64,000 bases of DNA from Ostreococcus lucimarinus (taxonomy: Eukaryota), in NCBI GenBank assembly GCA_000092065.1, contig CP000600.1. The stretch is one strand, 5' to 3'. The translations under genes and the position numbers were made by a program. The notes beneath the pieces were generated by a model. It searched no databases and had not been told where the DNA came from. It worked only from the letters and a program-made list of their open reading frames with translations. Shown here one piece after another: positions 15,798 through 34,956 of this stretch; position 1 is the stretch's first letter, and each line of letters starts with the position of its first letter.

Positions 15798-16026
15798 TCG
15801 TCTAAAAAAGTAACTCGCGACGTCGCCTCGTCGAGCGAGGCGCGTGACCTCCTCCCCGACCGATCCCTTAACGATAAAAAATAATAATCCAAGAGGGTTT
15901 TGATCCCCCGACCTTCTCCGCGTTCGCGGTGACGCGCCACACTCGAGCGCGCGCGCCGGAGTCTGGGCGTTCGCCGATGTAAAGGAGACGCGCTTCCACT
16001 GCGCCATCGGATCGAGATAGCGCTTT

Positions 16027-33590: not shown

Positions 33591-33789
33591 CGCGAGGAGG
33601 GCGTCGAAGGTCGCGTCGTGACGCGTCGTGACGCGGAACGCCGGAACGTCGCGCGCCGGAATCCCGAACACGCGAACACGCGAACACGCGCGTCGCCCAT
33701 AACATTGACGCTAGACAGTCGATCGGGGTGGGGTCGATCGTGTTTTCAGTTTTCCCGGTATGTAGCGTTCACCGAACGTTAAGTACGAA

Positions 33790-33950
33790 GGTCCTGTGGC
33801 CCAATGGATAAGGCGCCGGTCTACGGTTGTAGTCACGGTACTTTACCGTGATTTAGAGCCATGAGTGCCGAAACGCACACACAACACTCCGTCGAACGAG
33901 CCGTTCGAGTCGCAAACCGGAGATTCCAGGTTCGATCCCTGGCAGGATCA
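33790..33950 (+). tRNA. trnR-ACG: tRNA-Arg (anticodon ACG) with 88-nt intron at the canonical 37/38 position
   Basis: Acceptor stem GGTCCTG/CAGGATC with one G-U pair. D-arm GCCCAATGGATAAGGC, Arg-type. Anticodon stem CCGGT/ACCGG flanking loop CTACGG^A, anticodon ACG at 33823-33825. Intron 33827..33914. T-arm CCAGGTTCGATCCCTGG. Discriminator A. Confidence 0.7.
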
Positions 33951-34269
33951 CGATTTGTCGCGCACCTGTTAACTTTTTACCTTCGGGAAGCGCGGCGATG
34001 TCAAGCGTCGCTTGCGCGAACGCGTCGCGATACGCCTCAAACGACTCAAATCCTTTCATCCCGACGCGTCGCAAGCGAGCGTTCGCTGTCTCTTGTTCGG
34101 CTTTTTTTCGACTGCCAGAGTTTCCAGGGCGTCCGCTGCTCGATCACGTATAACTCTTCTTTTTTCCCAATATTTTACACATTTTTTTATTTATTGCATC
34201 TCCACAGTTGATCAATACCGTCGTGGTTACAACCGCGGCGCGCGCTGCTACGTCGCGAGGTTCGGTTCG

Positions 34270-34956
34270 CTATTCCATGGGCTCGACGCTCGCGCACCCG
34301 TCGCTCATCTGCGACGCGCCGCCGAGACCGCATCGCGAGATGCCGGCGTACAACGCGTCCGGTCCGGTGTCGCTGAGACGCAACAGCGTCACTTCGTATT
34401 TCAACGCGCTGTTCGCGGGAATCGTCGCGTACGGCGACCGCGCCGCCGCCGACCCGAATCCCAACTCGGGCGGCACCTCGAACGTTCTCGTACCGCCGAC
34501 GCGCATGCCGCGTATGCCCAAGCGCAAGCCCTCGGGCACCCCGGGCACCGGGGCGTCCGAGCTCAGATTGACGACCACCGGTCTCGCCGCCGCGGGCGCT
34601 ATGCTCACCGAGCCCACGCCCGAGGAGCTCGTCGCGTACACTCGCCCGCCCAGGGTGGTGTCGAACACCGCGCCGTCGCTCGCCAGCGTGCCCTCGTACT
34701 TGACCAACACCAAGCTCTTGCTCGTCGCCTCCTTGGCGCCGAATCCCGCGACGTCGCGCACTATTTTCACCGACGCTTCGTCCGCGAAAGCCGCGCGGCG
34801 TCCCAGCGCCGCGGCGACGGACGGGGCGAACAGCAAACACGCGCGGCGGGCGACGTCGCCGACGGCGTCGCTCGAGTCCCGAGCTCGCGTTCCAGCGCAC
34901 GCGACGCGGCGTCGCGGCGTCACCGCGACGGGCGGCGCGCGCGCGACGGGCGCCAT
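34270..34956 (-). CDS. FKBP-type peptidyl-prolyl cis-trans isomerase, likely thylakoid-lumenal
   Basis: FKBP fold motifs VKYEGTLASDGAVFDTT, GLRLGIRGMRVGGTRTFEVPPELGFG and IPANSALKYEVTLL. Bipartite presequence-like N-terminus. Confidence 0.75.
   Translation of the reverse strand: MAPVARAPPVAVTPRRRVACAGTRARDSSDAVGDVARRACLLFAPSVAAALGRRAAFADEASVKIVRDVAGFGAKEATSKSLVLVKYEGTLASDGAVFDTTLGGRVYATSSSGVGSVSIAPAAARPVVVNLSSDAPVPGVPEGLRLGIRGMRVGGTRTFEVPPELGFGSAAARSPYATIPANSALKYEVTLLRLSDTGPDALYAGISRCGLGGASQMSDGCASVEPME

Follow-up and report, generated by a model that had tools for sequence, protein, structure and literature searches.

Introns of nuclear tRNA genes are located between positions 37 and 38 of the tRNA and, according to the original prediction, are typically 8-60 nt long. 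In the canonical case they lack a catalytic core, leave the mature domain intact and are removed by the TSEN endonuclease (Sen2, Sen34, Sen54 and Sen15) and a ligase. More distant comparisons are offered by the archaeal BHB introns, which include a long tRNA-Trp intron encoding a box C/D RNA, and by the self-splicing group I introns of bacterial and plastid tRNAs, such as tRNA-Leu(UAA), which exceed 200 nt and have a conserved core. According to PlantRNA, green algae have many more tRNA families with introns than land plants (PMC3531208; bioRxiv 10.1101/2021.12.21.473619). The genus Ostreococcus, with only about 44-48 tRNA genes (44 reported for O. lucimarinus; PMC3673656), possesses cis-spliced as well as permuted tRNA genes and hardly any introns at atypical positions (PMC3978253). 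A relaxed hBH motif with an anticodon-intron (A-I) pair is a recognition feature of eukaryotic splicing endonucleases and is typical of green-algal genes (PMC3978253). For O. tauri, PMC13578239, citing Maruyama et al. 2010, describes tRNA introns of unusual length, about 64 nt.

We describe here a tRNA-Arg(ACG) gene at positions 33790-33950 (+ strand) of a 64-kb stretch of Ostreococcus lucimarinus nuclear DNA, the whole of which is termed the window below. The gene was delimited by Rfam alignment and reading by eye, and we consider it very probable that it is a nuclear tRNA gene with a canonical, protein-spliced intron of 88 nt at position 37/38. Its parts and adjoining signals are as follows.

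33790..33826, + strand: 5' exon, tRNA positions 1-37 (Rfam alignment)
33827..33914, + strand: intron, 88 nt, between tRNA positions 37 and 38 (ARAGORN -i and reading by eye)
33915..33950, + strand: 3' exon, tRNA positions 38-73 (Rfam alignment)
33797-33807, + strand: A-box-like TGGCCCAATGG, in the 5' exon
33929-33939, + strand: B box GGTTCGATCCC, in the T arm of the 3' exon
33974..33978, + strand: TTTTT run, 24 nt 3' of the gene

The 5' exon supplies the acceptor 5' strand GGUCCUG, a D arm GCC(C)/(A)GGC with the loop AAUGGAUA, the anticodon-stem 5' strand CCGGU and the loop CU-ACG-G, and thus ends in C32 U33 A34 C35 G36 G37. The 3' exon supplies A38, the anticodon-stem 3' strand ACCGG, the variable loop, the T arm CCAGG-UUCGAUC-CCUGG, the acceptor 3' strand and a discriminator A, with no CCA encoded at the 3' end of the gene (33950). 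The Rfam tRNA model RF00005 matches 33790-33950 (+) over its full length (1-71) with 44.5 bits (gathering score 29; E = 3.3e-6 for the 64-kb window), leaving a single unaligned block of 93 nt in the anticodon loop. With 33827-33914 removed, the remaining 73-nt sequence is identical to the intronless tRNA-Arg(ACG) gene of metagenome contig L089, which scores 60.1 bits with the same model; the shikimate kinase beside that gene clusters at at least 90% identity with Micromonas commoda XP_002502268.1. ARAGORN reports no tRNA in the whole window when run without intron search, and with introns allowed (-i) it returns a 162-nt gene at 33790-33951 with an intron of 88 nt, from which it follows that no intron-free cloverleaf exists at this site. 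The extent of the gene, its anticodon and the place and length of the intron given in the original prediction hence prove exact in the Rfam alignment, the ARAGORN -i run, the identity to L089 and the covariation described below; its statement that a cloverleaf forms only after intron removal is likewise upheld, and the ARAGORN run that it proposed as a check recovers the 88-nt intron, though under the label Gly(acc).

A scan of metagenome contigs with the 5' half of the tRNA yielded 120 loci, and further contigs (L numbers) were fetched through homologues of Rtf1, the product of a neighbouring gene; the 5'-exon pattern had no match in viral contigs. About 103 of the 120 loci, from plant-associated samples, are intronless and have a CUGGU anticodon stem, in agreement with the earlier assertion that tRNA-Arg(ACG) normally lacks an intron in plants; several others are intronless with a CCGGU stem, and the remainder have an intron after G37. 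Relative to the canonical nuclear case the present gene is thus distinguished by its isoacceptor, intronless in the plant-type genes recovered, and by an intron of more than 8-60 nt. By Rtf1 identity we distinguished at least seven lineages with mutual identities of 52-72%, about the same as that between O. lucimarinus and O. tauri; one Rtf1 relative (P0014) clusters with O. tauri XP_003082833.2. The state of the gene in the lineages in which it was found is listed below.

O. lucimarinus type (window, L001-L006, L047): intron of 88 nt at 37/38
O. tauri type (L134): intron of 61 nt at 37/38, same 3' module
L056: intron of 58 nt at 37/38
L061 / L125: intron of 58 nt at 37/38
L011 / L013 (2661-2786, minus strand): intron of 53 nt at 37/38, unalignable with the other introns; anticodon stem fully compensated
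L010: intron of 38 nt at 37/38
L137 / L051 / L082: no intron; copies at L137 28-101 near Rtf1, and at L051 181-254 and on L082 near PRP4

The Gly(acc) label corresponds to a placement of the intron two bases earlier, after position 35, with ACC as the anticodon of the product (ARAGORN 'tRNA-Gly(acc) i(36,88)'). This solution is returned by ARAGORN -i for the window, L056 and L061, and it does give an anticodon loop of 7 nt. However, the body of the molecule is that of tRNA-Arg(ACG), being identical to L089 and near-identical to L137, L051, L090 and L115, all of which read CU-ACG-GA, and the orthologues on L010 and L134 are labelled Arg(acg) by ARAGORN itself. The earlier placement would also depart from the 37/38 position of nuclear tRNA introns, and we know of no eukaryote that uses an A34 glycine tRNA. 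We accordingly regard a glycine tRNA as scarcely credible and retain the arginine gene with its intron at 37/38. For annotation, the gene is one that bacterial-mode tRNA finders miss and that the intron mode of ARAGORN mislabels as Gly(ACC), with the intron two bases early.

A second reading is that of a dead gene, in which tRNA-Arg(ACG) was disrupted by an 88-nt insertion and fell out of use. The raw Rfam score, 16 bits under that of the intronless version, would agree with this, as would the fact that the locus is broken and rearranged on L138, a contig from a 97%-related strain. Against it, the insertion lies exactly at 37/38 in six diverged lineages whose exons are intact and show only compensatory substitutions, and gene and intron are identical at 161 of 161 positions in the eight O. 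lucimarinus-type contigs. Among 10 distinct spliced or intronless relatives the cloverleaf pairs are kept in 200/200 cells and both sides have changed in 12 of the 20 pairs, neither of which figures is reached by any of 500 shuffles; shifting the pair partners by 1-3 columns lowers pairing to 24-43%. The 5' half was found to be identical in five other intron-containing Ostreococcus lineages, and the two anticodon-stem strands that flank the intron covary, CCGGU/ACCGG being replaced by CAAGC/GCUUG in L011, which fixes the exon boundaries independently. The exons are thus under purifying selection with compensatory changes. A C13-A22 mismatch in the D stem is common to all relatives, plant-type genes included, and is therefore not a defect. 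Of the marks of a tRNA pseudogene, namely broken stems, a low model score and lack of conservation, none was found.

The need for the tRNA points the same way. A tRNA with an inosine-modified ACG anticodon reads CGU, CGC and CGA, and 79% of the arginine codons in five neighbouring genes are of these three kinds; this, and a set of only about 44-48 tRNA genes in the genus and 44 in the species, argue that tRNA-Arg(ACG) is needed, and some 79% of the arginine codons in this genome region are probably decoded mainly by it. From the alignments and codon counts together a pseudogene appears very unlikely, and we assign the dead-gene reading a chance almost as small as that of the glycine tRNA. We proceed with a working gene whose intron is presumably spliced out.

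The intron alignment, which covers six sequences from five alignable lineages, divides the intron into a variable 5' part and a conserved 3' part. In the window these contain the following elements.

33831..33853, + strand: hairpin AGUCACGGUA-CUU-UACCGUGAUU, 10 bp, stem 33831-33840 with 33844-33853 (fold of the intron alone, z = -1.92)
33887..33914, + strand: conserved 3' intron module, about 28 nt (intron alignment)

The 5' part, some 10 to 60 nt long, differs fully from lineage to lineage, in length as well as in sequence. The stable hairpin noticed at first is real and lies in this part, with ACGGTACTTTACCGT at 33835-33849 as the core of its 10-bp stem; it is specific to O. lucimarinus, having neither a counterpart in the introns of the other lineages nor, with up to 3 mismatches allowed, a second copy in the window, and the hairpin that is conserved is a different one, next to the 3' splice site. 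The 3' module comprises, in order, CUCCGU, a 7-bp hairpin (33892-33898 with 33902-33908) and GUCGCA up to the 3' splice site. Across the five lineages it is near-invariant as CUCCGU, a 6-7-bp hairpin UCGAAC(G)/(C)GUUCGA with a variable loop, and GUYGYW. The stem of the conserved hairpin is invariant among the aligned lineages and so gives no covariation signal either way, its structure being a prediction. Conservation of the 3' module thus contrasts with turnover of the 5' part. Among the eight O. lucimarinus-type contigs variation is too scarce throughout to gauge constraint on the intron, with 0/88 variable sites in the intron, 6/119 in the upstream spacer and 3/282 in the Rtf1 coding sequence.

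With the other long introns of Ostreococcus the present one shares genus, position and the habit of length itself, and the O. tauri-type orthologue on L134 (61 nt) has the same 3' module. The O. lucimarinus intron is about 27 nt longer than that of L134 because its variable 5' part, with the 10-bp hairpin, is larger. The 88-nt length is therefore as the original prediction gave it, far above 8-60 nt, and yet it is unexceptional in the genus, given the value of about 64 nt cited above for O. tauri and the 57-nt intron of a tRNA-Val gene in the same window.

The conserved bases at the 3' end of the intron fit the A-I pairing that the eukaryotic splicing endonuclease uses. Possible pairs are C32 with G(-3) (33912), A34 with U(-5) (33910) and C35 with G(-6) (33909), which leaves C(-2), A(-1) and A38 as a predicted 3-nt bulge that holds the 3' splice site; the pairing of position 32 with -3 and the placement of the 3' splice site in such a bulge are as in canonical 37/38 introns. 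G(-3) and U(-5) are invariant in six of six Arg introns, including the unalignable intron of L011, and the G(-6):C35 pair is possible in five of the six. The intron of tRNA-Val(UAC) follows the same rule (U32:A-3, U33:A-4, U34:G-5), so that pairs 32:-3 and 34:-5 can form in 7/7 introns (six Arg and the tRNA-Val). At the level of sequence, then, a relaxed hBH motif with an A-I pair is predicted for the tRNA-Arg intron.

The predicted folds of the precursor are less uniform. Folded without constraint, the 161-nt precursor has a minimum-free-energy structure other than the cloverleaf (-60.6 kcal/mol, against -56.6 kcal/mol with the cloverleaf enforced), and the conserved intron CUCCG can compete for CGGAG in the 3' exon. 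A strict bulge-helix-bulge (hBHBh'), with two 3-nt bulges and a perfect 4-bp helix, formed in none of the constrained folds: the central helix has a mismatch of U33 with C or U at -4 in five of the six lineages, and the 5' splice site falls in a large loop or within a helix, never in a 3-nt bulge. Two alternative pairings, of 32-35 with -6..-3 and of 34-37 with the conserved CCGU, lie 0.1-3.5 kcal/mol apart, the sign of the difference varying by lineage, so that energy gives no choice between them.

The TTTTT run at 33974-33978 is likely to be the RNA polymerase III terminator. T runs are also found 3' of the gene in L134, L137, L010 and L011, and neither the intron at 33827-33914 nor the other introns examined contain any run of four or more T, so that there would be no internal stop for this polymerase; introns free of such runs, together with a T run after each gene examined, fit transcription by RNA polymerase III.

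For expression, transcription signals, pre-tRNA fold, splicing enzymes and inosine formation we infer the following course from established eukaryotic tRNA splicing. Transcription by RNA polymerase III would be directed by the A and B boxes within the gene and end at the T5 run (33974-33978). In the pre-tRNA the mature domain would fold, and the 3' end of the intron would pair with the anticodon loop (C32:G-3, A34:U-5, C35:G-6) in a helix stacked on the conserved hairpin, which would present the 3' site in the 3-nt bulge. A nuclear tRNA splicing endonuclease of the Sen2/Sen34 type, encoded outside the window, would then cut between 33826 and 33827 and between 33914 and 33915, and a tRNA ligase would join the halves, the predicted mature junction being 5'-CUACGG/AACCGG-3' (slash at the joint). 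Finally, A34 would be deaminated to inosine, giving a tRNA that reads CGU, CGC and CGA.

The strength of conservation of the 3' module raises the possibility that splicing proceeds as proposed and that the module has an added task, for example in a stable or circular excised RNA, as a contact for TFIIIC or as a platform for intron-dependent modification of the anticodon. Although the Rtf1 proteins of the five lineages share only about 58-68% identity and the remainder of the intron cannot be aligned, about 28 nt are almost unchanged among them, and the module contains a B-box-like GTTCGAGTC that includes GTTCGA, the core of the B box. This string, at 33902-33911 in the conserved hairpin, resembles the B-box core GGTTCGANTCC, with the true B box 26 nt farther downstream; chance may account for it, as many GTTCGA-like strings occur in the CG-rich window. 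Moreover, the conserved bases, G-3, U-5 and the adjacent helix, are those expected for recognition of the 3' splice site, for which reason splicing alone can explain the conservation of the module. The tRNA gene is also intact where the intron is unrelated (L011) or missing (L137 and L051), and neither an Rfam match nor a C/D box was found in the module. We thus hold an added task to be improbable, though less so than either a dead gene or a glycine tRNA, and regard splice-site recognition within an ordinary protein-spliced intron as the better account of the module.

Several other classes of interrupted tRNA gene resemble the locus in part. The permuted tRNA genes of Ostreococcus (PMC3978253) occur in the same genomes, and their processing at 37/38 likewise relies on an hBH motif and presumably on the same endonuclease; unlike these, the present gene has the order 5' exon, intron, 3' exon on the + strand and is cis-spliced, which rules out a circularly permuted gene. 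With the archaeal BHB introns it has in common a long intron in the anticodon loop and a helix by the splice sites, but a strict hBHBh' cannot be drawn, the C/D boxes are absent and the host is a eukaryote. The intron 33827-33914 contains neither CUGA (D box) nor UGAUGA of the C box (RUGAUGA) and matches no snoRNA family; the absence of the boxes excludes a carrier of a box C/D RNA. Group I introns likewise interrupt the anticodon loop, whereas here the intron is nuclear, only 88 nt long and without a match to any Rfam intron family. A scan of 33700-34050 against Rfam at E <= 1 returned only the tRNA and one chance-level match to a CRISPR repeat (E 0.76), with no self-splicing group I or II core, and on the missing Rfam match and the 88-nt length a group I intron was rejected.

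The intron is present in six Ostreococcus-level lineages and is absent from the Micromonas commoda-like contig, L090, L115, L118 and the plant-type genes. The intron-bearing genes share a RIO1-PRP4-Rtf1 neighbourhood that has been reshuffled by local inversions. The intronless lineage of L137, L051 and L082 is the sister of the L011 lineage, and L082 has two intronless tRNA-Arg(ACG) copies 1.7 kb apart. As the Micromonas-like, plant-type and other algal genes are all intronless, the simplest history would be a gain of the intron on the Ostreococcus stem and a later loss in one lineage. The lineage-specific gain proposed earlier fits this distribution, and has to be supplemented by the loss, an intronless gene being found at the same locus in one lineage. 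Alternatively, two independent gains, one in L011 and one in the remaining lineages, are possible, as the intron of L011 does not align with those of the other lineages. Near Rtf1 in the closest sister lineage (L007, L139, L140 and L141; about 67% Rtf1 identity) the available sequence showed no tRNA.

The flanks of the gene are structurally variable. In the eight O. lucimarinus-type contigs homology ends exactly at the 3' end of the tRNA, and the spacer toward the FKBP gene (33951-~34270) consists of unrelated sequence of other lengths, in at least four versions among the eight contigs; the tRNA-Arg gene thus marks a structural-variation breakpoint.

On contig L138 (1-700; ENA ERZ27296344 k141_321833), whose Rtf1 is 97% identical to that of the window, the tRNA-Arg locus itself is rearranged. 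The complete 5' exon lies beside the Rtf1 spacer on one strand (581-545). The opposite strand carries tRNA positions 22-61 together with the intron (262-388; identity to the window 98.4%); after these come an insertion of 111 nt with GTAAGT...CACAG at its ends, then positions 62-73 and a T5 run. A 16-nt overlap with a GGCGCC palindrome is duplicated in inverted orientation, and the inserted pieces have no match elsewhere among the sequences compared. Either the gene was broken by a real inversion, or L138 is a chimeric contig. We give a slim chance to a bolder view, in which the 3' module would be more than a scaffold for the splice site, whether as a genus-specific element recognised by the endonuclease, as an excised RNA that is stable or circular, or as an intron-dependent guide in modifying the anticodon of the main arginine tRNA, and in which, separately, L138 would come from a natural strain with an essential gene split by an inversion and a GT..AG-bounded insertion.

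The gene is an ordinary member of a class described in reviews and database papers, in a published reference genome, with its 88 nt towards the long end. What it adds is only modestly new, namely the contrast of a frozen 3' splice-site module with a 5' part that turns over, and the loss of the intron in one lineage. It offers a small example of the evolution of a nuclear tRNA intron in which the position is fixed, the anticodon-pairing bases are frozen, the upstream part has changed to give lengths of 38 to 88 nt and one loss has occurred. A possible use lies in the substrate rules of the algal splicing endonuclease; the case opens no new question and has little importance beyond correct annotation.

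The tRNA-Arg gene occupies the Rtf1-FKBP spacer, in divergent orientation to Rtf1 and 85 nt upstream of its start, among tightly packed eukaryotic genes for Rtf1/Plus-3, FKBP, an EF-hand protein, a plant-type APS reductase, the DHX16 helicase, RIO1, PRP4 and a uroporphyrin methyltransferase. Over all of its 228 aa the FKBP (34273-34956, minus strand) matches XP_001422644.1 of O. lucimarinus CCE9901 without a difference, and the window is therefore nuclear DNA of O. lucimarinus or of a near-identical strain. Micromonas had been considered as host on account of the GC content of the window (64%) and of the helicase, which is 82% identical to a protein named 'Micromonas pusilla', and was ruled out by the exact FKBP match. 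The first codons of Rtf1 (33620-33690, minus strand) contain short direct repeats, CGTCGTGACG twice and CGAACACG three times. The window has a second intron-bearing tRNA gene, tRNA-Val(UAC) at 15885-16013 on the minus strand (45.0 bits), whose 57-nt intron (15921-15977) lies after position 37, has 75% GC and is unrelated in sequence to the Arg intron; a T7 run follows closely 3' of this gene.
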